IMG/VR virus record: IMGVR_UViG_3300040811_000687
Strand: one strand, 5' to 3'
Source of the DNA: a virus
DNA length: 64,000 nt
The notes beneath the pieces were generated by a model. That model was not told the DNA's origin and made no database searches. It was given only the letters and a program-made list of their open reading frames with translations. A program made the translations under genes and the position numbers. Positions 44,378 through 60,838 of the stretch are shown here, one piece after another. Position 1 is the first letter of the stretch. Every line of letters starts with the position of its first letter.

Positions 44378-45426
44378 AGTGAGGCTAATATTGTATTACA
44401 TGTGTTATTTATTTCTTCATCTGTTAAAAAAGGATCAATTGGTAATGTTAAAATTGTATCACTGATATGTTTACAATTAATACAATCATCGCTTCTATGT
44501 GATATGTTTTTATACATAGGGCGTTCAGATATAGGTTTTTCATAGTGTACATTGGCATTTAATCTCTTTTTAACTCTGTTTCTTGTTTCTTTGTCTTCAA
44601 ATCTTACAATATATTTATGATACGTATGATTGACACCATTTGAGGTTGATTGTATAATTATGTCGTCCTTTAGTTGTTCATCATATTTTTTTGCTATTAT
44701 TTGTTTAGCCTCAACATATTGATCTAGTTTTTTTAATCTATAATCAATAAACTTTGCATTAAAGAATAACATTTTAGAGTTGTATCCTAGTATCTCATGG
44801 TTACCATGTTTTCTTAGCTTAATACACATATCAGCATAGTCTTTGTTATCTGTCAATACCACACCACCTCCGGCGATCCCACCTATCGTTTTGTTCGCAT
44901 TAAAACTTATTGTACTTAATTCTCCTAGAGTACCTGCTTTAACACCGTTAAGACTAGAACCTATGGCCTGAGCTGCGTCTTCTATAAATGATATGTTTTT
45001 TTCTTTACAAAATTTTAATATCTCTGTTATATCTGACATATTACCAAATAAATGTGGATAGACAATTGCTTTTACTTTGTCTGAATACATACGTTTGATA
45101 CTGTCAAGTGATATATGATAAGTTTCTTTATCTATATCGCAAAATACAGGAGTTGCACCTACCATAGATATACAAGACGCTGTTGATATCCACGAAAAGT
45201 TGGTTGTCAATACTTCATCGCCTGGTTTTATATTTAAACATTTTAAAGAAAACATTAAAGCGTCTGTACCGTTTTGACAAGCAACAGCATATTTTCTTCC
45301 TATTGTATCTGTAATTGTTTTTTCTAAAAACTCTATATTTTGTTCTTGTTTTTCTTGCATACACTCATCAAAAAGTTTAAGATATTCTTCTTTGTTTAGT
45401 GCATAATCTTTATTCCATGAATCCAT
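44374..45426 (-). CDS. DegT/DnrJ/EryC1/StrS PLP sugar aminotransferase
   Basis: NGTDAL, PGDEV, GATPVFCD, IEDAAQAIG, SFNANK (PLP lysine). Confidence 0.95.
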   Translation of the reverse strand: MDSWNKDYALNKEEYLKLFDECMQEKQEQNIEFLEKTITDTIGRKYAVACQNGTDALMFSLKCLNIKPGDEVLTTNFSWISTASCISMVGATPVFCDIDKETYHISLDSIKRMYSDKVKAIVYPHLFGNMSDITEILKFCKEKNISFIEDAAQAIGSSLNGVKAGTLGELSTISFNANKTIGGIAGGGVVLTDNKDYADMCIKLRKHGNHEILGYNSKMLFFNAKFIDYRLKKLDQYVEAKQIIAKKYDEQLKDDIIIQSTSNGVNHTYHKYIVRFEDKETRNRVKKRLNANVHYEKPISERPMYKNISHRSDDCINCKHISDTILTLPIDPFLTDEEINNTCNTILASL

Positions 45427-45845
45427 TATTTTATTTCCTCTACTACTTTTTTACCTTCAGCTGAAAAGTGAGTTTCTATTTTTATTTTATCTTCTTTTTC
45501 TCTTACTTTACAGTGATGTATACAAACTGATTGTACTTTTTTTAAACTGTCTTCATCTCCTATATCTCTAGCATTAATTAAATCATTTTCAAACTCAACC
45601 CATTCTTTTGTTTCAAGTATTTCATTTATACTATTATAGTCTTCAAGTTTACTTACATCATACAAAGGTTTAAATTCTTTTGAATTTATTATATTTTTTT
45701 CGTCACACCAACAACATGGTAATAAATAACCTCTATTATTAACTGCCATAGGCATAACATGTTTTCTACCATGCCATTCGTAATTTCCTTGTCTATCTTT
45801 ATCCGGTAAACAGAGAGGACTTAATTTAATTCTTTGTTTTGCCAT
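45426..45845 (-). CDS. Stand-alone twitch/SPASM-like domain protein
   Basis: PLC...AVNNRGYLLPCCW...VCIHHC. Confidence 0.75.
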   Translation of the reverse strand: MAKQRIKLSPLCLPDKDRQGNYEWHGRKHVMPMAVNNRGYLLPCCWCDEKNIINSKEFKPLYDVSKLEDYNSINEILETKEWVEFENDLINARDIGDEDSLKKVQSVCIHHCKVREKEDKIKIETHFSAEGKKVVEEIK

Positions 45846-46513
45846 TTGTAATTTCCATCTTTATCTTTTTCAGTTTGTTTTGTTAATAGTGTTTTAATTC
45901 CGGAAGAACCTGTTGGTCTTAAAGGATCTGGTTTACCATTATCATCCCTCCATCTAGAAGATTGAACCAATATAAATTCAAGTCCGTTGTCCGAAGCCAT
46001 TTTTTTGGCTTCTTCTATATTATTTTCATTGTAATTAAATATTATGTATTGCCATTGTGGTGTGGTATTTAAATGTTGTTTTGCTATTTTCATTATCTCA
46101 AACATCTTTTCTCCGTCTTGATTTTTTCTATACTTATGACTATCTTTCGGTAAGCCGTCACAGGCAAATACCCACCTTGCATTTGGATTTGCTTTAAATG
46201 ATTTAATAAACCATGATATAGGTTTAGCCGTGGCTGCGCTGTGAACTGTAGCTCCAATATTTTTTTTATTAAATAGTTCTAGTATTTCATTAAATCTAGG
46301 GTGATGTACAGGATCCGATAATTGTCCACAAAAGCCAACTGATTTAAAATGATCTGTTATCATATCTATTTCATGCAATGTTAGATCACGCCCATGTGGT
46401 ATTAAGCCTTTATTTGTAAAGGCCGTTTGTCTTTGACAATTAGGACATTCTAAAGGACATCTATGAGATAAATCCAAATTCAGTGCGTGTAATCTTTTTT
46501 TAAAATATGACAT
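45821..46513 (-). CDS. Radical SAM enzyme (core only), close paralogue of 13557..14240
   Basis: LNLDLSHRCPLECPNCQRQ, FCGQLSDP, DGLPKDSHKYRKNQDGEK. Confidence 0.9.
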   Translation of the reverse strand: MSYFKKRLHALNLDLSHRCPLECPNCQRQTAFTNKGLIPHGRDLTLHEIDMITDHFKSVGFCGQLSDPVHHPRFNEILELFNKKNIGATVHSAATAKPISWFIKSFKANPNARWVFACDGLPKDSHKYRKNQDGEKMFEIMKIAKQHLNTTPQWQYIIFNYNENNIEEAKKMASDNGLEFILVQSSRWRDDNGKPDPLRPTGSSGIKTLLTKQTEKDKDGNYKWQNKELN

Positions 46514-47422: not shown

Positions 47423-47443
47423 TATTTATAACACTTATAAATA
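47423..47443. promoter_or_regulatory. Divergent pair of late promoters
   Basis: TATAAATA on minus (47423-47430) and plus (47436-47443). Confidence 0.7.
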
Positions 47444-47464: not shown

Positions 47465-47635
47465 ATGACTATAAAAGCAAAACACAAAGATTTAAAAAAG
47501 CAAGTTAAAGAAGCTGAAGTAAAAAGAGAAACTAGACGTGGTTCAAGAAGTTGGACAGATTTACGTACATTAAAAAAATTAAAACTAAAAATGAAAGATA
47601 AGTTAAGATTATCTAAAAAAAGAATGAGTTTATGA
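47465..47635 (+). CDS. 56-aa DUF465/YdcH-like coiled-coil protein (absent from ORF track)
   Basis: GGAGG RBS; KHKDLKKQV...LKKLKLKMKDKL; ATGA overlap with the next gene. Confidence 0.65.
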   Translation: MTIKAKHKDLKKQVKEAEVKRETRRGSRSWTDLRTLKKLKLKMKDKLRLSKKRMSL

Positions 47636-48087
47636 AGACTTACCAGTACGATTTAGAAAAGATTAAAAAAGAGTTAGAAACTTTACCAGATTATAATAAA
47701 CAATTATATCTACAAGGTTATTCTAAAGACATGGATCCTGAAGAAGGAGCTGGTAAAGGTTATGACGTAGATAAAGTAGAACACACATATACTGTTCCTT
47801 TATTTGATATACCTTATATTAATAGTATAATGGAAGAACACAAACTTACTAGAACAAGATTGATGAGAATGAAACCTAAAGCATGTTATCTTTGGCATAA
47901 TGACTTGACACAAAGATTACATATACCAATAGTAACAAATGAACACTGTTTCTTATTACTAGATAATGATAGAATACACATACCAGCCACAGGAGAGGCG
48001 TATGTAATAGACACTAGAAAAAAACATACAGCACTAAATTGTTCAAAAGAAGATCGTACTCATATTGTTGGAGGACTACCTTATTAA
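47632..48087 (+). CDS. 2OG-Fe(II) oxygenase, Asp/Asn beta-hydroxylase-like
   Basis: RLMRMKP...WHND (HxD), RLHIPIVTN, HTALN, RTHIV. Confidence 0.82.
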   Translation: MKTYQYDLEKIKKELETLPDYNKQLYLQGYSKDMDPEEGAGKGYDVDKVEHTYTVPLFDIPYINSIMEEHKLTRTRLMRMKPKACYLWHNDLTQRLHIPIVTNEHCFLLLDNDRIHIPATGEAYVIDTRKKHTALNCSKEDRTHIVGGLPY

Positions 48088-49388
48088 TGGATAATACATT
48101 ATATGACGCCGTTATTACATCACTGCCAGGAATGGATAAGGGTAAACCTGCACCTGGTCCTTCTTTTTTAAAAGGATATTTAGAACCATTAGGATTTAAA
48201 ATTAAAGTTATAGATGGTAATCAATTAGATACTTTAGAAAATATACACAAAGAAATTGCAAAATATAAATTTAGATGGTTAGGTATATCTGTATTTTCTT
48301 TTATGCAAAAAGAAGATGGTTTAAAATTAGGAGAAAAATATGATAATGCTTTTTACGGAGGATCAGGTGTTGATATAAAATGGCCTTCTAAAAATTTTAT
48401 AGTAGGAGAAGGAGAATATGCTGTACAAGAATTTTTAAAAGGAAATTTTGATTATCCTGGTATTAACGGAAGACTACCAAAACAGATAGAAAACATAGAA
48501 GATTTGCCACCACCAGATTATTCAGACGTAATAAAAGAACACAAATATGGCAGATTTATAATATCTGGTTCTAGAGGTTGTGTTAGAAATTGTACTTTCT
48601 GTGATGTTGCAAGTATCTGGCCAAAATTTAGATGGAAATCAGGTAAAAAAATTGCTGACGAAATACATAGTGTTGCTGAACATACTAAATCTGAAAAGAT
48701 AGCATTTTCCGATTCATTGGTTAATGGTTCAATGAAACATTTTAGAGATATGGTTTACGAATTATCTATAAAAAAGAAAAAGGTAAAATGGGAAGGACAG
48801 TTTATTGTCAGAGCTGAAAAGACTTTTTCGCAAGAAGATTTTGATAATTTGGCAAACTCTGGTTGTAATGGTTTGGAAATGGGTATAGAATCAGGTAATG
48901 AAAGTGTTAGAAATCATATGAAAAAAAAGTTTACTAATGATGATATAAAATACTTTGTTACCAATTTAGGAGAAAGAAAAATTAAAATGAAGTTCTTACT
49001 GATTGTAGGATATCCTACGGAAACGGAAGAAATGTTTGAAGATACTATGCAACTATTAAGAGACTATGCAAAGTATTCACATTTAATCAGTGTATCTCAC
49101 CACGTTATGATGACTTTTGAAAATACACCTTTAGATTTTGAACATAGAGAATTGTTTGGTGGAGAATTTGGCTTCAAATGGAAAAATCAAAACTCCGATT
49201 TTGATATAAGATTTCAAAGATTTATAAAACTTTATGAATTAGGAAACCAATTAGGTTATCAGTTTCAACAACATTGTATTGACAAAATAGAAAGATACAA
49301 ATCTGATAAACTTAATGAAAATAGAAAGTCTATAGGAATTGATCACCCTAGAAAGAAAAAAGTTAATTCTTTACATGTACAATCTTAA
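48087..49388 (+). CDS. Cobalamin-dependent (class B) radical SAM enzyme (start revised from 48039)
   Basis: N-terminal B12-binding-type region (GISVFS, GG, GEGE); SRGCVRNCTFC; GIESG; IVGYPTET. GGAGG RBS and TAATG coupling. Confidence 0.88.
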   Translation: MDNTLYDAVITSLPGMDKGKPAPGPSFLKGYLEPLGFKIKVIDGNQLDTLENIHKEIAKYKFRWLGISVFSFMQKEDGLKLGEKYDNAFYGGSGVDIKWPSKNFIVGEGEYAVQEFLKGNFDYPGINGRLPKQIENIEDLPPPDYSDVIKEHKYGRFIISGSRGCVRNCTFCDVASIWPKFRWKSGKKIADEIHSVAEHTKSEKIAFSDSLVNGSMKHFRDMVYELSIKKKKVKWEGQFIVRAEKTFSQEDFDNLANSGCNGLEMGIESGNESVRNHMKKKFTNDDIKYFVTNLGERKIKMKFLLIVGYPTETEEMFEDTMQLLRDYAKYSHLISVSHHVMMTFENTPLDFEHRELFGGEFGFKWKNQNSDFDIRFQRFIKLYELGNQLGYQFQQHCIDKIERYKSDKLNENRKSIGIDHPRKKKVNSLHVQS

Positions 49389-50992
49389 AAAGATTTATTA
49401 AAACCTAAAGTAAATTTTCTTCCTTCTTGACTAAACCCATGAGGTGATTCATAATTTTCATCAAATAGATTTAACAAACTAACACCAAAGTCTATACCAT
49501 AATAATTATATCCAAGATTTAAATCTAACAAATGTGTTTCAGGCATTGTTATAGTTGACCAATTAGAATTATGCACATCTAAATGTCTGCCTTTATATTT
49601 GTAATTAGTAGTTATAGAAAAGTTATTTTTTAAATCTTTTGTATTCATAAATCCAACAGACCAATTAGGTCTTCTTAATTGTACTACATCAATCTTTTTA
49701 CTATTTAAATGACTAATAAAAAATTTAGAATTTTCTTGATTATAACTAAACTCTATACCGTCAGTATTTAAATCACCAATATCATTTTTAAATATAGTTG
49801 TTGCAAAATTATTTTTAGTTAATGTTAACTCTTGTGATTCTCCATATTCAATAGCAGTCCATGTTGTCTTATCTTTATAACTTGTTGATGTACTACCACT
49901 TATACTTAAACCATCTTCTACCTCTTTAAAGAAACCTAATTTATATGTTTCGTGTTCTTCATCAAACCTATGATGATATGAAAATATATTGTGTGAAAAA
50001 TTAAAGAAGTATCCTAGATTATGATGTTGACTTGCTAAAGATTCATTATGTTTATAATCAAAGCCAAAACCATATTTTTCTTTTTGATGTGTTCCTCTTA
50101 TTGTATAGTTTTCACTTTCATAATGAGAGTCGTCATAGTCTCTATCATATTCATGTGTATGAAAAGTTAAACTATTATTTAAATAATCAACACCTGTTTG
50201 TAAGGCAAAGAAAGTATTATCTGCCCATTTACCGTCTTGTATGGAAACACTATGACCATCTATATCAGAGAAAGTGTTTCTTGCAAACCAAGATGTTCGC
50301 CAATGTATTTGATCATACCATTTACTTACGTTAACACCTATTGTTTTATTATTTGTTCCATCTTTTTCGTCAGCTCCTGATAAAACAGAAACGTTTTGCG
50401 ACTTATGTTCGCCAGCTGAAAAAGATATATCAAAGTCATTTAATTTAGTATAGTAATTACCACTAATAGTTTTATCATTACCATTACCACCAATACTTAA
50501 TTTTTTATCATAATCTACAGTTGTTCTAAAATTAATTGCACCACCAACAGCGTCTGCTCCCCAATGAGCACCTTGTGACCCTTTGTATACATCTATTTGT
50601 ACAACATTAAACATAAAGTCTTGACCAACATCGTGGGCGCCTGTAGGTGTAGAGTAATCATTGATTGATATTCCATTTAATAATACTAATGTATGATTAG
50701 AATTAGTGCCTCTTAAAAACACCGATGATTGTTGACCTGTAGGACCTGATTGAGTTATGTCTAAACCTTGAACATAGTTTAATACTTTAGGTAAATCAAT
50801 TAGATTATACTTTTGAATTTCAGATTTTTTAATTGTAAGTGTAGGTGTTATCTTATCACCTAATGCGTTTGAGTTGTTTATGTTTGGATATATTGTAAGA
50901 CAAGGAATATCGTCATCCCATTTACAATCATCTTCCTTGGAATAGGCAACATTAGCCCATACCAAGATTAATATAAGAATTAATCTTATCAT
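49385..50992 (-). CDS. btuB: TonB-dependent outer-membrane cobalamin receptor, BtuB-like
   Basis: Signal peptide; plug GLDITQSGPTGQQSSVFLRGTNSNHTLVLLNG; GADAVGGAIN; C-terminal NLFDENY...GRKFTLGFNKSF. Cobalamin riboswitch directly upstream. Confidence 0.88.
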   Translation of the reverse strand: MIRLILILILVWANVAYSKEDDCKWDDDIPCLTIYPNINNSNALGDKITPTLTIKKSEIQKYNLIDLPKVLNYVQGLDITQSGPTGQQSSVFLRGTNSNHTLVLLNGISINDYSTPTGAHDVGQDFMFNVVQIDVYKGSQGAHWGADAVGGAINFRTTVDYDKKLSIGGNGNDKTISGNYYTKLNDFDISFSAGEHKSQNVSVLSGADEKDGTNNKTIGVNVSKWYDQIHWRTSWFARNTFSDIDGHSVSIQDGKWADNTFFALQTGVDYLNNSLTFHTHEYDRDYDDSHYESENYTIRGTHQKEKYGFGFDYKHNESLASQHHNLGYFFNFSHNIFSYHHRFDEEHETYKLGFFKEVEDGLSISGSTSTSYKDKTTWTAIEYGESQELTLTKNNFATTIFKNDIGDLNTDGIEFSYNQENSKFFISHLNSKKIDVVQLRRPNWSVGFMNTKDLKNNFSITTNYKYKGRHLDVHNSNWSTITMPETHLLDLNLGYNYYGIDFGVSLLNLFDENYESPHGFSQEGRKFTLGFNKSF

Positions 50993-50995
50993 GTT

Positions 50996-51097
50996 GAGTT
51001 TCCTTGCTCGTTGTATGGCCTAGGTGGCATTCGGAGTATAACCGTATCAAGTAATCTGGACGAATTTCACGTCACTTTCCCACTACACTTTTAGGCC
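50996..51097 (-). ncRNA. Class II cobalamin riboswitch (AdoCbl-variant/Cbl-IIa, env8-like)
   Basis: Minus strand GGCCUAAAAGUGUAGUGGGAAAGUGACGUGAAAUUCGUCCAGAUUACUUGAUACGGUUAUACUCCGAAUGCCACCUAGGCCAUACAACGAGCAAGGAAACUC. Shows GGCCUA/UAGGCC closing helix, GGGAA, T-loop, GCCAC B12 box, and P13 whose loop holds the RBS (CAAG can pair with L5 CUUG). Confidence 0.95.
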
Positions 51098-51114
51098 ATT
51101 GTTATATACTATAT

Positions 51115-51143
51115 AGTATATAATATTTTATCTAAAATGGCAA
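51115..51143 (-). promoter_or_regulatory. Sigma70-type promoter for riboswitch-btuB
   Basis: TTGCCA-17bp-TATACT; the -10 lies within a 22-bp perfect palindrome (51102-51123). Confidence 0.65.
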
Positions 51144-51165: not shown

Positions 51166-51507
51166 ATGGCTGGAATAGCAAACTTAACGATAGACCAAGG
51201 GTCCAATTTTACATACGATTTAGAAGTCACTAATACCGATGGTACAGATTTTGATCTTACTGGATTTACGATGGTTGCTAAAATGTCTAAAGGTTATTCC
51301 TCTACATATCCTAGAACATCATTTACTTGTACAGTAACAAATCCTACAGAGGGTGTGGTAACTATAAGTTTAACTGCCGATCAAACAAAAGCTTTAAAGG
51401 CAGGTCGTCACGTATTTGATGTTGTAGCTACTCACGCTGATAGTACTGTTACTCGTTTATTAGAGGGTATTGTTATCGTAACTCCATCTGTAGTCAAATC
51501 TTTTTAA
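51166..51507 (+). CDS. Small virion structural protein (Ig/BppU-like)
   Basis: NLTIDQGSNF, DLTGFT, ISLTADQT, GRHVFDV, RLLEGIVIVTP; TATAAATA at 51153-51160. Confidence 0.75.
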   Translation: MAGIANLTIDQGSNFTYDLEVTNTDGTDFDLTGFTMVAKMSKGYSSTYPRTSFTCTVTNPTEGVVTISLTADQTKALKAGRHVFDVVATHADSTVTRLLEGIVIVTPSVVKSF

Positions 51508-52880
51508 GCAAGATATTCAAATACTGCTTTGTTCATACCTTTGTTAACAAGTTTAAACTGTGCTTTAGTCATAAAGCTTTCTAGAGTAGCCCAATTTAAA
51601 CCACTTATATCGTCAAAAACCCATACAGTTTGATCTGCTTTTCTTTGATTAAAGAATACTGCTTCTTTTAAAACACTTTTTGTATCATGTGGACCGTCAA
51701 AGTGTATCATTTCATATTTGTCTATCATTCTTTTATATTCATCATAGACAGGATAACCATTAGCAAAACTATTCATAAATTCTGAATCTTCTAGATTTAC
51801 AAGATGAAACTCTGGATAATCTTCAGCAAAATTTATTAGCGTAGTTTTTCTCATTAAATTATCATAGTTAAATTTTCTGGCTAATACACTATCAGAAGCT
51901 GCATAGTCAATATTACCATATGGATCAACACCTAAATGAACAAGACTAGTATTAGGATGATAATGTCTGTATGCGTCTATAATAGTTTTACTTCCTAGAC
52001 CTAATCTAACACCAATCTCCATACTTTGACCAATAGGATTTTTTAATCTTTGTACTGCTTCTGCTAATGAAGTATATTCTACACTATCACCAGTAAATTT
52101 TTCTCCTTCATTTACTTCTAGTGAATATTTTCCAGTTTTAGGATCAATACCTGGATAAACTCTACTAACATCTTTTGCAGTCTTATCAATAAATCTAGTA
52201 TCTTTTTCACCTTTGCCTTCAACTTCTTGAACATAAGTTTTTTCAATAGGTGGTTTTTCTTCAAACATATTACGATTATCCATAATTTGTCCTACTTCAA
52301 ATGTACTGTTACCTGTGTGTCTACAACGTATTGTAGTATCTGCCCATATTTTAAAACCTTTTGCTCTTGCTTTTCTACAAAAGTCAACATCTTCAGATAA
52401 TGTATTATTATGATCAAGTGCTGAATGATATGTGTATTGAGGATAACCAACTTCTCTAAATACTTTTCCTTTAATAAGGGCACAACCCATACCACAACCA
52501 ACTATTTCTAAAAACGGAGTATCTTTAACTTTTACCCAAGGAATACGTCTAGAACCACCGTTATTAGAAGCTTCATAAATTTCTAATGAGTGTGTTCCTG
52601 GTATTCTTTGAATATAAAGACCTGATACAATATCTACATCATGTGCTAACATTTTAACTAGTGTATCTTTATCAAAAGATATATCACTATCTACTGAAAA
52701 CAAATAATCATAATGTTCTCCCCATTTAGCAATTAGATTTCTAATTTGATCTACTTGATAACCAAAAAAGAATTGAAATTCAACTTTGTATCCTTCTGGT
52801 ATTGTAAGATCATATATCGCTTTGTATGTTTCTGGTTCTATATACTTGTTTGTTGGTATTGCTATTAATACTTTTTTCAT
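51504..52880 (-). CDS. GT-A glycosyltransferase fused to a class I methyltransferase
   Basis: N-terminal VLIAIP, FSVDSD, GMGCALI, SEDVDFC; C-terminal EIGVRLG, GVDPYG, IHFDGPH, VFDD. Confidence 0.85.
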   Translation of the reverse strand: MKKVLIAIPTNKYIEPETYKAIYDLTIPEGYKVEFQFFFGYQVDQIRNLIAKWGEHYDYLFSVDSDISFDKDTLVKMLAHDVDIVSGLYIQRIPGTHSLEIYEASNNGGSRRIPWVKVKDTPFLEIVGCGMGCALIKGKVFREVGYPQYTYHSALDHNNTLSEDVDFCRKARAKGFKIWADTTIRCRHTGNSTFEVGQIMDNRNMFEEKPPIEKTYVQEVEGKGEKDTRFIDKTAKDVSRVYPGIDPKTGKYSLEVNEGEKFTGDSVEYTSLAEAVQRLKNPIGQSMEIGVRLGLGSKTIIDAYRHYHPNTSLVHLGVDPYGNIDYAASDSVLARKFNYDNLMRKTTLINFAEDYPEFHLVNLEDSEFMNSFANGYPVYDEYKRMIDKYEMIHFDGPHDTKSVLKEAVFFNQRKADQTVWVFDDISGLNWATLESFMTKAQFKLVNKGMNKAVFEYLA

Positions 52881-54907
52881 TGTTTCATTATCCTATTCGC
52901 ATTTTTGGTTTGTTCGTCTCCGTTAATTTTATAATCGTTTAAAGGATTTATATCATTATAATTATATATTATATCTGATACAACTTTTACCTTATCTGGA
53001 TCAGCTTGTTCTATGAGTGAATAAAATATAGAACCGTCTCCGCCAGCTTTGTACCAGTTTTTGTTTTCGTCTTGGAAATTACTGTCATCAATATCATTTA
53101 AAAGTCCTGCTTTAAATGTTCTCAAATGTGTGTATGGCATGTTCCAATTAAATTTGTATTTTCTATATTCTTTCTTTTGTTTTATTTCCTCTGGATAGTT
53201 TTGTGCTATCAAAGGTATTCTATCAACCATTGAGTAACAAGACCCATAGGTAAATTCTGTAGTGCCGTCATAAAGATTATTGTAAAAGTGAAGTATCTCA
53301 TTATCATTTATAAAAGAATCATCACCATCTAAAAACATAACAATGTCATCTTCTTTACAATATTTTCTTATAGACTCTATTTGATTTCTAACAGCGCCTT
53401 TATTTTCTTCATTACGAATCACTTTTATTTTATCACTTTCCCATTGTTTGGCAATGTTGTAAGTATTATCTGTAGAGGCGTCATCAATTACAATCATTTC
53501 ATAGTTATCATAATCTTGTGAGACAACTGATTCAATACAGTTGCTAATATATTTTTCAGAGTTGTAAGTAGGAGATATTATAACTATCTTTTGTTCTACT
53601 TTTCTTGGTAAATAATTTTCTTCTATATTAGTAAATCTTCTACCAAAAACTTTTCTAACTCTAGAATTTATATGACATACTTTTCTATATTCTTCTTTTG
53701 ATAAGTAATTTCCTAATTGTCTATATAGATGTTGTTTCCATTGTAAGGCTACAGAGTCCCAACCTACAATACCTTTAATTTGATTACAAGCATATTGTTT
53801 TTGTTGATGTAAATATCTATTATGATGAGCCATTAATACAGTGTTGACAAATTTATCTACTTGTTTATTTTTTGGTATCCATGGAAATAAACCATTAGGT
53901 TCTATTGCATAATCTATTAAGTAACAAGCTTCGTTTACTGCTGTTTCTTCTAAAGCACCAAAACGTGTAGTGATTAAAGGAGTGTTATATGCTATTGCTT
54001 CTAAAGATGATATACCAAATGTTTCAGGAAAAGCACCTGGAAATAATTTATAACTTGCTCTTTCTAATATATCTGCTATTTCAGATTGTTTTATAACACC
54101 TGTAAATTCTATACCTAAATTTTTATTTTTAGGATCATTTGACATTTTAGTCCATTCTTTTCCTTGAGCGTCTAACTCTTGTCCTGGAAAAACATAAAAA
54201 CCACCAATACATATTAGTTTAGCTTCAGGTATTTTTTCTTTTATTTTTGGCCATATATCGTTAACTAAAGGTGCCATACCTTTTGTGAAAGCTGCATTGA
54301 AAACATATAAGTGTGGGTCTTTCTTTCTTATATCAACATCATTTTTATAAGTTACTATTCCATTTCTAGTTTGAAAAAATTTATGTTTTAATACTTCCAT
54401 GTTTCTTCTTTTACCATGGTCACAATTCATCACATAAGTTGAATGAAAATCTGATAAAGTAAATACTTCATCTATATGCCCTTGTATTAAAAGGTCTTCT
54501 AATATAAGATCGCCGTTTGCAAATGTGTCATGCATCCAAACTGCTTTATGTCTAGCATTAGCTGTGATTGCTGAATATCTTTGAGGATTATATCCTTCAA
54601 ACTGTTTATATAAGTTAGGTGTTATGAAAGGAATTATAGTTCTTAATGAAATTACAATATCAAATTTGAAATCACTTTTATAATCTAAAATAGTATTGTC
54701 AAAATATTGTACACCATCATAAGTGCCTTCTCTTGCGAGTTTTGAGTCTTTATTACAGTTGTTGAAAATAGTTACTTTGAAACCTAACTTTGTTAGTTCT
54801 TTGGCCATCAAGATAGTCGCAGACTCGCTACCACCAAGGCCTCTTTTCTTTAATGTATCTCCGTCATACGGAAGACCAATTATATCTAAAAATGCAATAG
54901 AAATCAT
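52877..54907 (-). CDS. Bifunctional glycosyltransferase (GT-B/GT4-like plus GT2)
   Basis: GLGGSE, WMHD, ETFGISSLEA; then IISPTYN, VIDDASTD, FLDGDD. Confidence 0.9.
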   Translation of the reverse strand: MISIAFLDIIGLPYDGDTLKKRGLGGSESATILMAKELTKLGFKVTIFNNCNKDSKLAREGTYDGVQYFDNTILDYKSDFKFDIVISLRTIIPFITPNLYKQFEGYNPQRYSAITANARHKAVWMHDTFANGDLILEDLLIQGHIDEVFTLSDFHSTYVMNCDHGKRRNMEVLKHKFFQTRNGIVTYKNDVDIRKKDPHLYVFNAAFTKGMAPLVNDIWPKIKEKIPEAKLICIGGFYVFPGQELDAQGKEWTKMSNDPKNKNLGIEFTGVIKQSEIADILERASYKLFPGAFPETFGISSLEAIAYNTPLITTRFGALEETAVNEACYLIDYAIEPNGLFPWIPKNKQVDKFVNTVLMAHHNRYLHQQKQYACNQIKGIVGWDSVALQWKQHLYRQLGNYLSKEEYRKVCHINSRVRKVFGRRFTNIEENYLPRKVEQKIVIISPTYNSEKYISNCIESVVSQDYDNYEMIVIDDASTDNTYNIAKQWESDKIKVIRNEENKGAVRNQIESIRKYCKEDDIVMFLDGDDSFINDNEILHFYNNLYDGTTEFTYGSCYSMVDRIPLIAQNYPEEIKQKKEYRKYKFNWNMPYTHLRTFKAGLLNDIDDSNFQDENKNWYKAGGDGSIFYSLIEQADPDKVKVVSDIIYNYNDINPLNDYKINGDEQTKNANRIMKQ

Positions 54908-54935
54908 TTATTTAAATTATCAACTCACTACAGTT

Positions 54936-54977
54936 TATTTATAAATATACTATAACAGAATATTAAAAAAATGTCAA
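54936..54977. promoter_or_regulatory. Bidirectional late promoter plus minus-strand sigma70 promoter
   Basis: Palindrome TATTTATAAATA (54936-54947) carries TATAAATA on both strands. Minus strand TTGACA (54972-54977)-17bp-TATAGT (54949-54954). Confidence 0.75.
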
Positions 54978-55023
54978 TGCTTGGACATTAAAATAAAAAT
55001 ATGAGGGAAATAAGTATCGCAAT

Positions 55024-57075
55024 ATGCCAGTAATTCAAAACGCTAGTGTTCGTGTCGGCCTAGGACGTATAGGTTATACAGGATCAGGAGGTCCAACAGG
55101 TTTTACAGGTTCCAAAGGGGATCCAGGGGCTGCCGGATCACCAGGTGGTTATTCAGGTTCACAAGGTTTCACAGGATCACGTGGTGAACAAGGTCCAGGT
55201 GGTGGTTACACTGGTTCAGTAGGTGCTGTAGGTTTTACAGGATCCTCAGGAGGTTTAGGGTACACAGGTTCATCTGGTACAGTTGGTTTCACTGGCTCAA
55301 CAGGAGTAGGTTATACAGGATCAAAAGGTGCTGACGGATCAGATGGTGCTGTTGGTTTTACTGGTTCTACCGGAGCAGGATATACAGGATCAAAAGGTGA
55401 CGCAGGCTCAGATGGTGCCGTAGGTTTTTCAGGATCAAAAGGAGATACAGGTTCACAAGGTATACAAGGTGTAACAGGTTTTTCAGGATCAAAAGGAGAT
55501 ACTGGTACAGCAGGCGCTATAGGATATTCAGGATCAAAAGGAGATACAGGTTCACAAGGTATACAAGGTGTAACAGGTTTTTCAGGATCAAAAGGTGACG
55601 CAGGCTCAGATGGTGCCGTAGGTTTTACAGGATCAAAAGGTGATCAAGGTGTAATAGGTTTTTCAGGTTCAAAAGGAGATACAGGAACAGCAGGTGCTGA
55701 TGGTTCAGATGGTGCCGTAGGTTTTACAGGATCAGTTGGTATAGGTTACACTGGTTCAGCAGGTGCCACAGGTCCTCAAGGTCCAGGTGGTGGTTATACT
55801 GGTTCAGCAGGTGCCGTAGGTTTTACAGGATCAGCAGGATCAGGAGGAGATTCTCCTTTTGTATTTACAACTTCAGGAGATTATAGAACACTTACAGGTT
55901 ATATAGAAAGTGGTGTAACAAGTACAGTTAGAACAGCAGAATTTTCAGGTGATCTTTTAAGATTAACTTTAGCAACTTTTACTCCTACATTTTCAGCTTC
56001 ATCAACTCCAAGTTCATCATTAAATTGGGATGTTCCTTGTACAGGATTTTCTGTATCAGTAGATAACCCTAGTGATGTCACAAACGATTTTATAAGTTCA
56101 GTTTACTCTATCACTCAATCAAGTGGAAGTGTTAACGGTACTTTAAGTAATTATTCAGCAGGTAGTTATTCACAAACACCAGCAGGTGGTGTAGATTGGA
56201 ATCAAACTTTTACTGTAGACAATTCAAGTTCATATATTAGACCAATATCAACTAGTCGTACTGGAGGTTCGGCTGGTGCAACAATTAAATTTAATCATAA
56301 TGACGGCAGTGAATCAGAATATACAGATTCAAATACAAGTTTTTCTGTAAACTGGTCAACAGCGTCTATGAGTTTATCTAAAACTAATGTTAGCGGAAAA
56401 ACATTTTTAAAATCTTATGCTAGTACATCGTACTCTACTAGCACAAGTGGTATATCAAATTCAAGTAACACTTCACATGCTTTAACAGCAAGTGGTGGTT
56501 CTTTGAGTACAAATTCAGGAAGCGGATATGTGAGTGGGACATTTACATTTACATCACCTATACACAAAGACAATACAAGCGATACACGTACTATCTCAAA
56601 TACGTGTACGTTTACAAGACCTGTTGATGTAACAGGTTCCTCATATACGACAGATCAGTCGTCAACAACAAGCAACATATCTGCTTCATTTACGTATCCG
56701 TCTTTCTGGATCTGGACAACAGGAGTAGGAACTACTCCAACACTCTCCGATATAATAGATGATTCAACATCTACAGGTTTTGAATCGGCAGTTAATCAGT
56801 TGTCAGATCAAACAAGAACATTTTCAGTACAATCAGTTACTAATTCAGATTCTAATCCTAGGGCATTTTGGTTTGCTGTTAGAAATTCAGCGTCTCAACC
56901 TGGTACATTTAAAACAGGTGCAAGTGCAGGATTATTAAGTGATGTTAGTACAACAGATGGTGGAACAATTACACTAGTACCTGATTCACCATTATCAGGA
57001 CAAACAGGAGAAAGTTATCATTTATATGGATTTACTTTACAACCAGGAACAACTTACGTGGAGATAGGAGCATAG
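55024..57075 (+). CDS. Collagen-like fibre protein with Ser/Thr-rich C-terminal domain
   Basis: About 260 aa of G-X-Y repeats (GFTGS/GYTGS/KGD), then a beta-rich domain. Confidence 0.85.
   Translation: MPVIQNASVRVGLGRIGYTGSGGPTGFTGSKGDPGAAGSPGGYSGSQGFTGSRGEQGPGGGYTGSVGAVGFTGSSGGLGYTGSSGTVGFTGSTGVGYTGSKGADGSDGAVGFTGSTGAGYTGSKGDAGSDGAVGFSGSKGDTGSQGIQGVTGFSGSKGDTGTAGAIGYSGSKGDTGSQGIQGVTGFSGSKGDAGSDGAVGFTGSKGDQGVIGFSGSKGDTGTAGADGSDGAVGFTGSVGIGYTGSAGATGPQGPGGGYTGSAGAVGFTGSAGSGGDSPFVFTTSGDYRTLTGYIESGVTSTVRTAEFSGDLLRLTLATFTPTFSASSTPSSSLNWDVPCTGFSVSVDNPSDVTNDFISSVYSITQSSGSVNGTLSNYSAGSYSQTPAGGVDWNQTFTVDNSSSYIRPISTSRTGGSAGATIKFNHNDGSESEYTDSNTSFSVNWSTASMSLSKTNVSGKTFLKSYASTSYSTSTSGISNSSNTSHALTASGGSLSTNSGSGYVSGTFTFTSPIHKDNTSDTRTISNTCTFTRPVDVTGSSYTTDQSSTTSNISASFTYPSFWIWTTGVGTTPTLSDIIDDSTSTGFESAVNQLSDQTRTFSVQSVTNSDSNPRAFWFAVRNSASQPGTFKTGASAGLLSDVSTTDGGTITLVPDSPLSGQTGESYHLYGFTLQPGTTYVEIGA
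55072..55845 (+). repeat. Coding collagen-like tandem repeats
   Basis: Recurrent ggttttacaggatca and tcaggatcaaaagg units. Confidence 0.85.
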
Positions 57076-57076
57076 T

Positions 57077-58570
57077 ATGGCTACAAATTACGATGGTCTA
57101 ACACGAAACGTCTGGCCAGGAACATGGAGTACCGGCACTAACTCGCCTATCGTTATAGATACGGAAGTTAGAGGTACACTTCAAAGTATTTCTGGTGATA
57201 GTGGAGATAGATTAACAGATATTCCAGGTGCAAGAATAACAGAGGGTATGTTAGTATATGTTAAAAACGGATATACTTCAGGTTCAACTACATACACAGC
57301 AGACAAATATTATACTTACAAACTTCAAGGTAGTGAAGTACGTAGTAGTGTTACAGGTGCAGTGCCAAATGCCGACGCCAACTGGTCATTATTCAGTGTT
57401 GGTGGTGGATCAGGTTATACAGGATCAGCCGGCGCTATAGGTTTTACAGGATCAGCAGGTGCTGTAGGTTTTACAGGATCAGCAGGCGCTATAGGATATT
57501 CAGGATCAAAAGGTGATCAAGGTACTGTAGGTTTTTCAGGTTCAAAAGGAGATATAGGATATTCAGGATCAAAAGGAGATACTGGTACAGCAGGCGCTAT
57601 AGGATATTCAGGATCAAAAGGAGATACTGGTACAGCAGGCGCTATAGGATATTCAGGATCAAAAGGTGATCAAGGTGTTATTGGTTACACAGGTTCAATA
57701 GGTTTTTCAGGATCAAAAGGAGATATAGGATATTCAGGATCAAAAGGAGATACTGGAACAACAGGTGCTGATGGTTTAGATGGTGCTGTAGGTTTTTCAG
57801 GTTCAAAAGGAGATATAGGATATTCAGGATCAAAAGGTGATCAAGGTATAATTGGTTATACAGGTTCAAAAGGTGATCAAGGTGATCAAGGTGTTATTGG
57901 TTACACAGGTTCAATAGGTTTTTCAGGATCAAAAGGTGATCAAGGTATAATTGGTTATACAGGTTCAGAGGGAAATTTAGATATAGCAGTTGCTTCAACT
58001 CCTCCAGTTTCAGCAGGTATTGGTGATGTTTGGATTGATGACGCAACAGGTATTCAATACTTCTACATGAACGATGGTAACAGTAATCAATGGGTAGAAT
58101 TAAGTAACCAAGGTGTTGTAGGATTTACAGGTTCAGCTGGTGCTAGTACGTTATCTTCTCTTACAGACGTAACTATTAGTACACCACAAAAAGGCCATAC
58201 TTTAGTTTATGATGGTTCAGGTTGGGTACAAACACAAACTCCAATTTCACAATTTGTTGTAACAGCCAATGGTTCAAGTGCATACAGATTTGATGGTGCA
58301 GGATTCCCTAGTACGAGTGGCGATAATCCTACTATCTACCTTAAAAAAGGTCAAACATATTACTTTAGAAATACAACTAGTGGACATCCATTTAGAATAC
58401 AATCTACTACAGGTACAGGTGGAACAGTATATGATACAGGTGTTACTGATAATAACGCCTCAGGATCAACAGGTGTAGTTATATTTCATGTTCCTATGAG
58501 TGCTCCTGCGACATTATACTATCAATGTTCATCGCATGGTTCTATGGTAGGAACAATTACTATAGTTTAA
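57077..58570 (+). CDS. Collagen-like fibre protein with C-terminal cupredoxin-like fibre domain
   Basis: GYSGSKGD repeats; GDVWIDD..QYFY.NDG..QWVELSNQG module; NPTIYLKKGQTYYF, GHPF, LYYQCSSHGSM. Confidence 0.85.
   Translation: MATNYDGLTRNVWPGTWSTGTNSPIVIDTEVRGTLQSISGDSGDRLTDIPGARITEGMLVYVKNGYTSGSTTYTADKYYTYKLQGSEVRSSVTGAVPNADANWSLFSVGGGSGYTGSAGAIGFTGSAGAVGFTGSAGAIGYSGSKGDQGTVGFSGSKGDIGYSGSKGDTGTAGAIGYSGSKGDTGTAGAIGYSGSKGDQGVIGYTGSIGFSGSKGDIGYSGSKGDTGTTGADGLDGAVGFSGSKGDIGYSGSKGDQGIIGYTGSKGDQGDQGVIGYTGSIGFSGSKGDQGIIGYTGSEGNLDIAVASTPPVSAGIGDVWIDDATGIQYFYMNDGNSNQWVELSNQGVVGFTGSAGASTLSSLTDVTISTPQKGHTLVYDGSGWVQTQTPISQFVVTANGSSAYRFDGAGFPSTSGDNPTIYLKKGQTYYFRNTTSGHPFRIQSTTGTGGTVYDTGVTDNNASGSTGVVIFHVPMSAPATLYYQCSSHGSMVGTITIV
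57412..57966 (+). repeat. Coding collagen-like tandem repeats
   Basis: ggatattcaggatcaaaaggagat units. Confidence 0.85.
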
Positions 58571-58723
58571 TTAAAAACTATTGTATTATTAACAGATTTG
58601 AAGAAGAATTATATTATAAATAGATGTAGAAAAGAAAAAAAAGACTTTTCTTGCAAGAATTATATGATAAAGAATTGAATTTTTAAATTTAAAAAAACAA
58701 TAATAAATTAGGAGACAACAAAA

Positions 58724-59737
58724 ATGGCAATTAACTTTCCAAGTAGTCCCGCATTAAATGACATATACACTCTCGGTACAAGACAGTGGAAATGGAATGG
58801 TAATGGCTGGGCTCTACAACCTCTTACAGCGGGTTTCACTGGATCAATCGGTTATACTGGTTCTAAAGGTGATATCGGGTATACAGGTTCTAAAGGGGAT
58901 ACTGGTTTAGGCTTCAACATTGCGAAGACATACACTAGTGTCGCTAACTTAACAGCGGATACAAGTCCATCAGGCATTAATACTGGTGAATTTGCTATCA
59001 TTGAAAACGGCTCTTTAACAGACGCCGAAAATTCTAGATTATACCTATGGAACGGTTCAGCATACTCATTCGTATCTGACCTTTCAGGTACAATTGGTTT
59101 CACAGGATCTTTTGGTTACACTGGATCTAAAGGGGATCAAGGTGTTATAGGTTACACTGGTTCTAAAGGGGATCAAGGTGTTATAGGTTACACTGGTTCT
59201 AAAGGTTTCACAGGATCAAAAGGTGACATTGGTTACACTGGTTCTAAAGGGGATCAAGGTGATATAGGTTACACAGGATCAAAAGGTGACATTGGTTACA
59301 CTGGTTCTAAAGGTTTCACAGGATCACAAGGTGACATTGGTTACACTGGATCAAAAGGTGACATTGGTTACACTGGATCTTTAGGTTTCACAGGATCAAA
59401 AGGTGATATAGGTTACACAGGATCAAAAGGTGACATTGGTTACACTGGATCTGAAGGTAATCTTGATATCACAACTTCATCTACTCCGCCAACATCTGGC
59501 GTAGGCGAAGGTGATATTTGGGTAGACAGCGCAACTGGTGTACAATACTTTTACTACAACGATGGTAACAGTACACAATGGGTAGAGCTTTCTAACCAAG
59601 GTGTTGTTGGATTTACAGGATCACAAGGTGCTCAAGTAGACACTGTTGATTCAAGTAACTTCAGCTCAGCTGTAACTTTACTAATCAAAAATAGTTCAGG
59701 TACTACATTAAAAACAATCATAGGTAACGCTACATAA
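58724..59737 (+). CDS. Collagen-like fibre/adaptor protein
   Basis: N-terminal INFPSSP..WKWNG..W; GYTGSKGDI repeats; QWVELSNQG module; C-terminal LLIKNSSGTTLKTI. Late promoter at 58615. Confidence 0.85.
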   Translation: MAINFPSSPALNDIYTLGTRQWKWNGNGWALQPLTAGFTGSIGYTGSKGDIGYTGSKGDTGLGFNIAKTYTSVANLTADTSPSGINTGEFAIIENGSLTDAENSRLYLWNGSAYSFVSDLSGTIGFTGSFGYTGSKGDQGVIGYTGSKGDQGVIGYTGSKGFTGSKGDIGYTGSKGDQGDIGYTGSKGDIGYTGSKGFTGSQGDIGYTGSKGDIGYTGSLGFTGSKGDIGYTGSKGDIGYTGSEGNLDITTSSTPPTSGVGEGDIWVDSATGVQYFYYNDGNSTQWVELSNQGVVGFTGSQGAQVDTVDSSNFSSAVTLLIKNSSGTTLKTIIGNAT

Positions 59738-59770
59738 TAAGTAGAGCAAATTAAAAGGAGAAAATAAATT

Positions 59771-60700
59771 ATGGCAACAAGAAACCCATTAGTATACAGC
59801 AGTGGAAATCTAGTTGAAATGACTTCAGCTCAAGTTGACGCAGTTATAGATAATATTGTTTATCAATATTCTTTATCGCCGTCAGTTACGTTATCAGTAG
59901 TAGGTTCAAGTGGCTCTTTAGGAGCAATTTCTGATACAAGATTACAAGCAGGTGCTATTTCTAATAGTTCTACTAGTTTTCCAGGATCAGGTACAACACA
60001 AGACCCTCAAACTGTAACAACAAACTATGATAAAGTAAGTCAAACAGTTGCTTCGGTTACGCCGACAACTGATACAGGTACAACATGGCCGGTATACTAC
60101 ACAAGTGGTGGTGAAATTCATGCTATGCCTTTAGCAGATATTAAGGATACGTTCTTACATCCTGCTATTGATTTACTTACAGCAAGTACAACTACAACGC
60201 AACAAGGTGGTACATATTTTGTATCATCTTCAGCGTCTGTTAGTGGTGCTACTGAAGTTAGTGGTTCAAACACACCTATATTCATTGACACAAGAGCCAA
60301 CACTGGCGCTTATGCTGCTGGATCTATAGGTGACCACGCACAAGATAACCCAACTACGATTACTAGTTACTATTTACAGAGAGTAAATGGTGCTACGTCA
60401 TCTTACGAAAATCTATTAAATATAGACGGTACAACTCACTTACAACAAACTGGTTCATCTTTTGATACTTTGTGTCAAGAGTGGATTAGAGCGACTGCAA
60501 GTGCTTCAGTAGACGGATATACGATTAGATACAACTTTAATGGTTCAGGTACTACAAGAGGTACAGGTATGGCTAACACTATACTTGATGGCTCTAGTTA
60601 CAATACTAGACAAGTTGGTGATGACTATAGAGCGCAAGAGTTTCCAGCAGGTTCGGTAACGACAGCTGCAACTCACACGCTAAAGATTGTTAAAGCATAA
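59771..60700 (+). CDS. Thr/Ser-rich virion structural protein
   Basis: AAGGAG RBS; composition and context among fibre genes. Confidence 0.7.
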   Translation: MATRNPLVYSSGNLVEMTSAQVDAVIDNIVYQYSLSPSVTLSVVGSSGSLGAISDTRLQAGAISNSSTSFPGSGTTQDPQTVTTNYDKVSQTVASVTPTTDTGTTWPVYYTSGGEIHAMPLADIKDTFLHPAIDLLTASTTTTQQGGTYFVSSSASVSGATEVSGSNTPIFIDTRANTGAYAAGSIGDHAQDNPTTITSYYLQRVNGATSSYENLLNIDGTTHLQQTGSSFDTLCQEWIRATASASVDGYTIRYNFNGSGTTRGTGMANTILDGSSYNTRQVGDDYRAQEFPAGSVTTAATHTLKIVKA

Positions 60701-60729
60701 TAATCTATAGTAATCAAAGGTGCAAAATT

Positions 60730-60761
60730 AACCCCCGGAGCCTAGGTTTCGGGGGTTTTTT
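60730..60761 (+). terminator. Intrinsic terminator
   Basis: AACCCCCGGAGC-CTAG-GTTTCGGGGGTT plus T-tract. Confidence 0.88.
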
Positions 60762-60838
60762 ATTGGAAAATAACTTGTTTAAAATGTTATAAATATTATA
60801 AATATGGTGATAGAACAAATAGAAGGAACAAAATTTAA

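Follow-up and report, generated by a model that had tools for sequence, protein, structure and literature searches.

Why would a virus carry a gene resembling that of a vitamin B12 receptor, and place it behind a cobalamin riboswitch? The question is raised by a module at positions 47465-51143 of the IMG/VR record IMGVR_UViG_3300040811_000687, of which a stretch of 64,000 nucleotides (nt), hereafter the window, was analysed computationally. In this module, a gene for a BtuB-like TonB-dependent receptor, headed by a class II cobalamin riboswitch, converges on an operon that ends in a gene for a radical S-adenosylmethionine (SAM) enzyme of class B type. Judging from its genes, the window is a pelagimyophage, a T4-like virus of SAR11-type ocean bacteria: its gp6 shares 70% identity with gp6 of Pelagibacter phage Mosig and 54% with gp6 of the HTVC008M and Melnitz phages, and T4-like baseplate and fibre genes are present. 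On balance, we lean towards the reading that the module serves this phage to sense, import and use cobalamin, so that B12 is fetched for its own enzyme.

If true, this would be feedback-regulated cofactor acquisition by a virus, with a metabolite switch controlling a virus-encoded outer-membrane importer. Riboswitch control of btuB is already known; the new part is its carriage by a virus, the trimming of the receptor and the pairing with a B12-type enzyme. To our knowledge, riboswitches are rare in viruses. A pelagimyophage survey of 2020 reported none (PMC7029224), and a study of 2022 found only glutamine riboswitches (PMC9004378). Our literature search found no description of phage btuB, of cobalamin riboswitches in SAR11 phages or of B12 radical SAM genes in SAR11.

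A cobalamin riboswitch upstream of the receptor gene

The receptor gene and its control elements are read from the minus strand:

51115-51143, minus strand: sigma-70-like promoter, TTGCCA-17-TATACT, assigned by consensus match only (10 of 12 positions), just upstream of the riboswitch
51017-51097, minus strand: AdoCbl-II (class II, env8-type) cobalamin riboswitch aptamer, Rfam RF01689
50996-51016, minus strand: expression platform, consisting of a 7-nt J1/13 linker and the P13/L13 hairpin GAG-CAAGGAAA-CUC, placed from the sequence and the layout of the riboswitch env8HyCbl
49385-50992, minus strand: BtuB-like TonB-dependent receptor, 535 residues, from Pfam Plug, NCBIfam and fold matches
about 50887-50926, minus strand: C-x-W...P-C-[LIV]-T-I segment, receptor residues 23-36, also found in the SAR11 loci L030-L056

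An Rfam scan of the whole window returned AdoCbl-II as its single match, which scored 75.2 bits (gathering score 36.5, E 6e-17) over model positions 1-81 of 81. The covariance model thus confirms the complete class II riboswitch that a preliminary description of this DNA had recognised from the sequence alone. That description also noted that riboswitches of this class cover the ribosome-binding site (RBS) by an L5-L13 kissing loop. The sequence is compatible with this: loop L13 contains the Shine-Dalgarno AAGGA, 8 nt upstream of the receptor AUG (50992), the AUG follows 3 nt past the P13/L13 hairpin, and CAAG of L13 is complementary to CUUG of L5, so that the predicted kiss could form over the RBS. 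For env8HyCbl, kissing-loop translational repression and a preference for small upper ligands have been demonstrated experimentally (PMC5028336); by analogy, the window riboswitch would bind cobalamin and repress the receptor. The minimum-free-energy fold of the leader alone is no better than that of shuffles (z -0.95), which we do not count against the assignment because this RNA depends on ligand and tertiary contacts.

A site resembling the sigma-70 promoter of that description is likewise present, and its -35 element (TTGCCA/TTGACA) is found at one and the same place in related phages and in SAR11 loci. Sigma-70-like sites as such are not enriched in this AT-rich region, with 28 seen against 25.5 expected from shuffled sequence. 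From its sequence, the promoter is likely to be read by unmodified host RNA polymerase, which would mean early expression.

The receptor

The 535-residue product has a signal peptide, a Plug domain (Pfam E 1e-17) and a C-terminal Phe; export and insertion into the outer membrane are therefore expected. Its best NCBIfam matches are the TonB-B12 and BtuB models, far below their equivalog cut-offs, and the Pfam barrel model PF00593 gave no match. An AlphaFold model, built with 28 relatives (predicted local distance difference test score, pLDDT, 70), shows a plug and about 22-23 barrel strands joined by very short loops. When this model was used for a fold search, the top 12 matches in the PDB were all E. 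coli BtuB, with template-modelling (TM) scores of 0.73-0.79 except for one computed model at 0.67, and siderophore and haem receptors ranked after them. The receptor can thus be called BtuB-like, as first described, since BtuB comes first by both family and fold, though not with an equivalog score. The ratio of nonsynonymous to synonymous substitution rates (dN/dS) is 0.13-0.23, i.e. the gene is under purifying selection. That the protein transports corrinoids is what the riboswitch control and the gene linkage described below would imply.

Recurrent linkage to B12-type radical SAM genes in phages

A search of the module region against 50,697 phage records at the DNA level gave no match, and a protein search of INPHARED found the receptor gene in no cultured phage, only bacterial or contaminant BtuB plug matches. 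Uncultured viruses gave a different result. The receptor was found, at 75-99% identity, on 25 IMG/VR contigs that come from different samples. Most of them share the gene order glycosyltransferases, LtfC-like gene, leader, receptor, convergent radical SAM gene, cupin and orf56. Of these 25 close loci, 22 have the riboswitch, 20 of them as the window type at 93-99% identity and two as a different type. On other phage contigs, relatives of the receptor stand beside ribosomal protein S21, CsgGF, ThyX and a VrlC-like gene, which are hallmark pelagimyophage genes.

Co-occurrence of the receptor with B12-type radical SAM genes, which the preliminary description had put forward as a check, was found in four different phage arrangements. 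The first is that of the window, a convergent pair in syntenic loci that extend past the receptor gene. In the second (loci L026-29), an orthologous pair of cupin and radical SAM genes (72% identity) has a 4-nt convergent overlap with the gene of a 587-residue receptor, which is 27% identical to the window receptor; a gene for a DUF6580 membrane protein precedes. The third (L019 and L025) comprises SufE, a 497-residue B12-binding radical SAM protein with 30% identity to the window enzyme, an Fe-S assembly protein, the riboswitch, the receptor and ThyX. In the fourth (L115/116), a 517-residue receptor is followed 2 nt later by the gene of a 632-residue B12-binding radical SAM protein, in a phage that has Pam3-like genes in place of the pelagimyophage set.

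One contig of the second type, L027 (GCA_002691705.1, NZIR01000018.1; 46 kb), is binned as 'Candidatus Pelagibacter sp.' and carries a VrlC-like gene of 2034 residues together with the module of cupin, radical SAM enzyme and receptor. The contig looks like phage, likely through a binning artefact or an infected cell.

The phage leaders themselves fall into two very different types, the short env8 type and a SAR11-like type, on receptors that are 83-85% identical. The latter (L019:5829-5950 and L025:5828-5950) has a conserved extension of about 40 nt and ends about 80 nt before the ATG. Two leader types on such close receptors point to leader replacement or recombination.

A sister cassette in SAR11 bacteria

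The nearest full-length cellular relatives of the receptor, of 620-630 residues, are all from Pelagibacteraceae (single-cell genomes and the isolate HIMB1506). They share only 30-35% identity with it, and the phage gene is therefore not a recent insert. Five sampled SAR11 loci have an AdoCbl-II riboswitch upstream (85-99 bits), and downstream of the SAR11 receptors lies the gene for DUF6580, a small multi-pass membrane protein, given here for two SAR11 loci and for the phage-like contig L027:

L056, 9824-10330: DUF6580
L031, 9873-10403: DUF6580
L027, 12945-13334, minus strand: DUF6580

Diverse B12-binding radical SAM genes occur within 8 kb of the receptor, amid methyltransferase and sugar genes, in 20 of 27 SAR11 loci, which extends the co-occurrence from the phages to their hosts. 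We sampled 81 genomes of Pelagibacteraceae: a single Plug-domain receptor occurs in 20 of them, DUF6580 likewise in 20, and both together in 19. The pair is therefore an accessory cassette, and the finding that the SAR11 type strain has no TonB-dependent transporter (PMC3400609) fits this. DUF6580 is a candidate inner-membrane corrinoid transporter; its comparison with PDB sequences gave no match, and we found no mention of it in the literature. The response of SAR11 btuB to B12 has been stated as unknown (PMC9296465), a question that the cassette with its AdoCbl-II riboswitch answers at the sequence level.

In a quick maximum-likelihood tree, the 535-residue phage type is nested in relatives of 604-618 residues, and together these are sister to the SAR11 clade, with values of 96-99 in the Shimodaira-Hasegawa-like approximate likelihood-ratio test (SH-aLRT); the 587-residue phage type falls outside this grouping. 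The root is arbitrary and gives no direction of transfer, and of the 604-618-residue relatives only one was checked, P0120 of 611 residues (L114), whose contig is phage-like.

The convergent operon

The receptor gene faces an operon on the plus strand:

47436-47443, plus strand: box TATAAATA of T4 late-promoter type, 21 nt upstream of the orf56 ATG, with the RBS GGAGG following it
47465-47635, plus strand: orf56, 56 residues, very basic, a variable member of the operon
47632-48087, plus strand: cupin of the Asp/Asn beta-hydroxylase family (2-oxoglutarate/Fe(II) oxygenase type), 151 residues, PF05118
48087-49388, plus strand: radical SAM enzyme of class B architecture, 433 residues, with an N-terminal Rossmann-like B12-type domain and a radical SAM barrel

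The barrel of the radical SAM enzyme is recognised by PF04055 (E 1e-19), and its CxxxCxxC motif (C-VRN-C-TF-C) is invariant across the homologue alignment, whereas the N-terminal domain has no conserved Cys. B12-binding radical SAM families make up most of the top NCBIfam matches of the enzyme, next to some of MiaB/RimO type, and all score far below their cut-offs. A structural model (pLDDT 83) finds its best fold matches in MgmA, OxsB, TsrM and CysS, followed by AprD4, MiaB and TokK. Motif and modelled fold together make the architecture class B. The preliminary description had gone further and called the enzyme B12-dependent; cobalamin use is a reasonable expectation from this architecture, and the B12-binding domain PF02310 is recorded for homologues at 70-72% identity. 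The start codon was set at the ATG 48087 from the alignment of homologues, replacing an earlier choice of TTG 48039. This ATG overlaps the cupin stop in the sequence TAATG, by which the radical SAM gene is evidently translationally coupled to the cupin.

The cupin itself scores 34.6 bits with PF05118 (cut-off 22.6) and contains the metal triad H89-x-D91...H132, which bears out its description as a 2-oxoglutarate-Fe(II) oxygenase. The label DUF465 that orf56 had been given did not hold, since the match to PF04325 is below threshold (15.9 bits against a cut-off of 25, E 0.013). This small gene is poorly conserved: relatives keep only about 30 of its residues, and the L026-type phage lacks the gene.

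The stop codons of the radical SAM gene (49386-49388) and the receptor gene (49385-49387) interlock, giving exactly the 4-nt convergent overlap (49385-49388) noted before. The only terminator-like hairpin, at 49658-49672, lies inside the receptor gene, and none stands between the convergent genes. With no terminator between them, the presumed early receptor and late radical SAM transcripts should therefore run into each other as antisense.

The window contains 22 boxes of the sequence TATAAATA, which equals the expectation from composition. All but three (47430, 54943 and 6651) are on the coding strand of nearby genes, and many stand just upstream of gene starts; only this strand bias and the position relative to genes suggest that the boxes may function.

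The module had been placed inside a T4-like structural region. The phage setting stands; the core structural genes do not, and the location is instead a variable island for glycans and host recognition, between the baseplate/VrlC-like genes and the fibre genes. An aminotransferase, a carbamoyltransferase, a glycosyltransferase and fibre genes surround the module there, which suggests that the substrate of the operon is linked to glycan or virion tailoring.

Proposed mechanism

From these data we propose the following scheme. Early in infection, host RNA polymerase would transcribe the leader and the receptor mRNA from the sigma-70-like promoter. With hydroxo- or methylcobalamin bound, L5 would kiss L13, the P13 hairpin would be stabilised with the RBS held in it, and receptor translation would be off; when cobalamin is scarce, the RBS would be free and the receptor would be made. 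The receptor would then be exported and take its place in the outer membrane of the host, where this BtuB-like plug-and-barrel protein with its trimmed loops would capture corrinoid from seawater, its uptake presupposing an energy source and a passage through the inner membrane. Late in infection, the T4-type late promoter would drive the convergent operon. The cupin hydroxylase and the class-B-type radical SAM enzyme would put the cobalamin to use, carriage of methyl groups being its most likely role, on a target that is likely tied to the glycan/fibre island. The claim that the phage senses and imports cobalamin for its own enzyme thus gains comparative support from the recurrent linkage, the conserved riboswitch and the purifying selection, while it remains something that we infer.

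Points against the scheme and alternative explanations

Several observations weigh against this proposal. First, the linkage is not universal: in L014, L023 and L114, the receptors lie among replication genes or by ThyX, with no radical SAM gene within reach. The riboswitch, too, is missing in L016, L017 and L023 as well as with the distant receptors of L026-29, L114 and L115/116; its loss in several lineages means that the regulation is dispensable. Second, the receptor scores only 95.3 bits against the 599.7 and 86.8 against the 836 that the BtuB models TIGR01779 and NF007926 require, and the extracellular loops that are shortened in its model are those that hold B12 in E. coli BtuB. Third, PF02310 reaches only E 0.076 in the window enzyme, and one of the close fold matches, AprD4, shares this architecture and is not known to bind cobalamin. 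Fourth, partners for transport are hard to find. The preliminary description rightly saw no tonB, exbBD or btuCDF in the window, and the gap is broader than that: searches for Pfam TonB_C gave no match in three SAR11 genomes that carry a receptor, nor in five related viral records of 12-43% completeness; the three SAR11 genomes each have one match to the MotA/ExbB family (TolQ/ExbB type), and the window phage has no DUF6580, BtuCDF or other candidate for the inner-membrane step.

Could the receptor then serve the cell surface rather than nutrition? Its main role might be to remodel the surface or to exclude superinfection, or it might act as a decoy for other phages or for bacteriocins; the phage would have taken it up along with the host leader, the riboswitch being a passenger, and B12 import would not be the function under selection. 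Such a role would fit the position of the gene within the island for glycans and host recognition, next to glycosyltransferase and fibre genes, as well as the trimmed extracellular loops, the lineages that lost the riboswitch, the phages whose receptor has no radical SAM gene nearby, and the failure to find TonB and an inner-membrane partner in the records examined. A passenger riboswitch is hard to square, however, with its 93-99% conservation in 20 loci, and a surface protein with the B12-type radical SAM linkage in four phage arrangements and 20 of 27 host loci; moreover, the DUF6580 partner in one phage lineage makes sense only for transport. We regard this explanation as unlikely.

Just as doubtful, in our view, is that the module is real and its molecule or cofactor is not cobalamin proper. 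The molecule could be another corrinoid or tetrapyrrole (pseudocobalamin or cobinamide), or the enzyme could be AprD4-like and free of cobalamin. In favour are the identity of only 19% between the receptor and E. coli BtuB and the receptor scores far below the equivalog cut-offs; as for the enzyme, AprD4 and MiaB occur in the lists of fold and sequence matches, and the Pfam B12-binding domain has only the E value given above. Against this, the receptor is directly controlled by a cobalamin riboswitch and BtuB ranks first by family and fold. The enzyme is not MiaB-like, since its N-terminal domain lacks conserved Cys residues for an auxiliary cluster, and linkage to B12 uptake would have no obvious use if the enzyme were B12-free.

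Finally, the receptor segment might be thought an assembly chimera or bacterial insert, its gene being in no cultured INPHARED phage and its nearest cellular relatives being bacterial (SAR11), an idea that can be dismissed on synteny: the junctions recur across 25 independent viral contigs from different samples, most with the same phage neighbours, further contigs have receptor relatives beside hallmark pelagimyophage genes, and the identity to SAR11 receptors is only 30-35%.

Energisation of the receptor

The proposal that the phage acquires cobalamin leaves an energisation puzzle, with TonB not detectable in the phage or host genomes examined. Searches with TonB_2 in the SAR11 genomes and the five viral records gave nothing usable. 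In HIMB1506, the one genome examined further, the MotA/ExbB-family gene passes the TolQ equivalog cut-off and the next gene passes that of TolR, followed by a 287-residue protein without a family match.

The receptor sequence is unusual at the corresponding place. Where the alignment shows the TonB box DLVVTP/A in other bacteria, the window receptor has P-C-L-T-I-Y-P after C-x-W. The pattern C-x-W-x(3-5)-P-C-[LIV]-T-I extends over the SAR11 and phage clade, with both Cys residues invariant. We had considered PTLTIKK (residues 50-56) as a TonB box and rejected it, the alignment showing it to be the first plug strand.

These features allow a bolder and distinctly more speculative version of our proposal, which we put forward as a minority view. 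In it, the SAR11 and phage receptor branch would work without a canonical TonB, through the disulfide-bracketed segment and the sole TolQR-type motor or another energiser; the phage copy would give hosts B12 uptake for late, cobalamin-dependent tailoring of virion or surface glycans, and env8HyCbl would be viral. If true, the phage would supply B12 uptake in a clade in which three quarters of the sampled species lack the receptor.

Relation to known systems

The closest known relative of the window leader is env8HyCbl, also called env8Cbl-IIa (AACY021350931.1, PDB 4FRG), which belongs to the same Rfam family RF01689 and has the same L5-L13 kissing loop over the RBS. We compared the two by published residue numbers. 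The 102-nt layout of env8HyCbl fits the window leader at 50996-51097 (minus strand), with G51097 as nt 1. The A9-U13 closing pair, G12, a pyrimidine at nt 11 and the 7-nt J1/13 linker all fit (PMC6158498), as do the P13/L13 hairpin of nt 89-102, the U45-A99 pair, G96 and the bulged A97 (PMC5028336). Two positions vary. The bulged G98 of env8HyCbl (PMC5028336) is A98 in the window and is G98 in L003, L007, L010, L013, L014 and L015; nt 11 is U in the window and C in six of the eight related phage loci compared (L003 also has U, and L014 has A). The 'A48-G96' pair given in PMC5028336 was taken as a misprint, nt 48 being U and A46-G96 fitting the geometry. By the residue numbering in the two papers, env8HyCbl very probably belongs to this phage-borne lineage. 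Until now this RNA has counted as an anonymous sequence from a marine metagenome; the lineage found here sits in a phage. This gives a likely natural origin and genetic context to an RNA that is widely used in structural studies and in the Riboglow imaging platform.

In E. coli, translation of the plug-and-barrel receptor BtuB (PDB 1NQE-1NQH and 2GSK; TIGR01779) is likewise repressed by a riboswitch, and this protein is both the best fold (TM 0.79) and the best family match of the window receptor. The leaders differ in class, that of E. coli btuB being of the classic adenosylcobalamin (AdoCbl) class RF00174 and that of the window of class II. The window receptor, at 19% identity, has trimmed loops and a length about 60 residues below that of BtuB; instead of the TonB box DTLVVTA of E. 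coli BtuB it has the Cys-bracketed C-x-W...P-C-L-T-I. Furthermore, a TonB-ExbBD and BtuCDF system like that of E. coli is not detectable in the phage or host genomes examined, and the window gene is encoded by a virus.

The SAR11 cassette (e.g. that of Ca. Pelagibacter sp. HIMB1506) is nearer. Its receptor forms the sister clade and has the same riboswitch family and the same N-terminal Cys motif, and as in the window, B12-type radical SAM genes accompany it in a glycan island. The SAR11 receptors, 30-35% identical to that of the window, are about 90 residues longer. They are paired with DUF6580 in 19 of 20 receptor genomes, in contrast to the window phage, which lacks it. Their leader has a longer expression platform than that of the window, and this host-like form is kept in the phages L019 and L025.

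The window enzyme shares its Rossmann-like domain and CxxxCxxC barrel with the class B radical SAM enzymes MgmA, OxsB, TsrM, CysS and TokK, at 14-18% identity. Unlike these, it is translationally coupled to a small cupin of the Asp/Asn-hydroxylase type.

Neighbouring genes

Adjoining the B12 module at 51504-61050 are two large multi-domain glycosyltransferase/methyltransferase genes, divergent from collagen-like fibre genes. The tailoring enzymes may find their targets or partners in these large genes. Just upstream of the module, at 45426-46513 on the minus strand, lies a radical SAM gene of 230 residues (a weak Pfam match, E 4.5e-5) with an overlapping partner of 139 residues.

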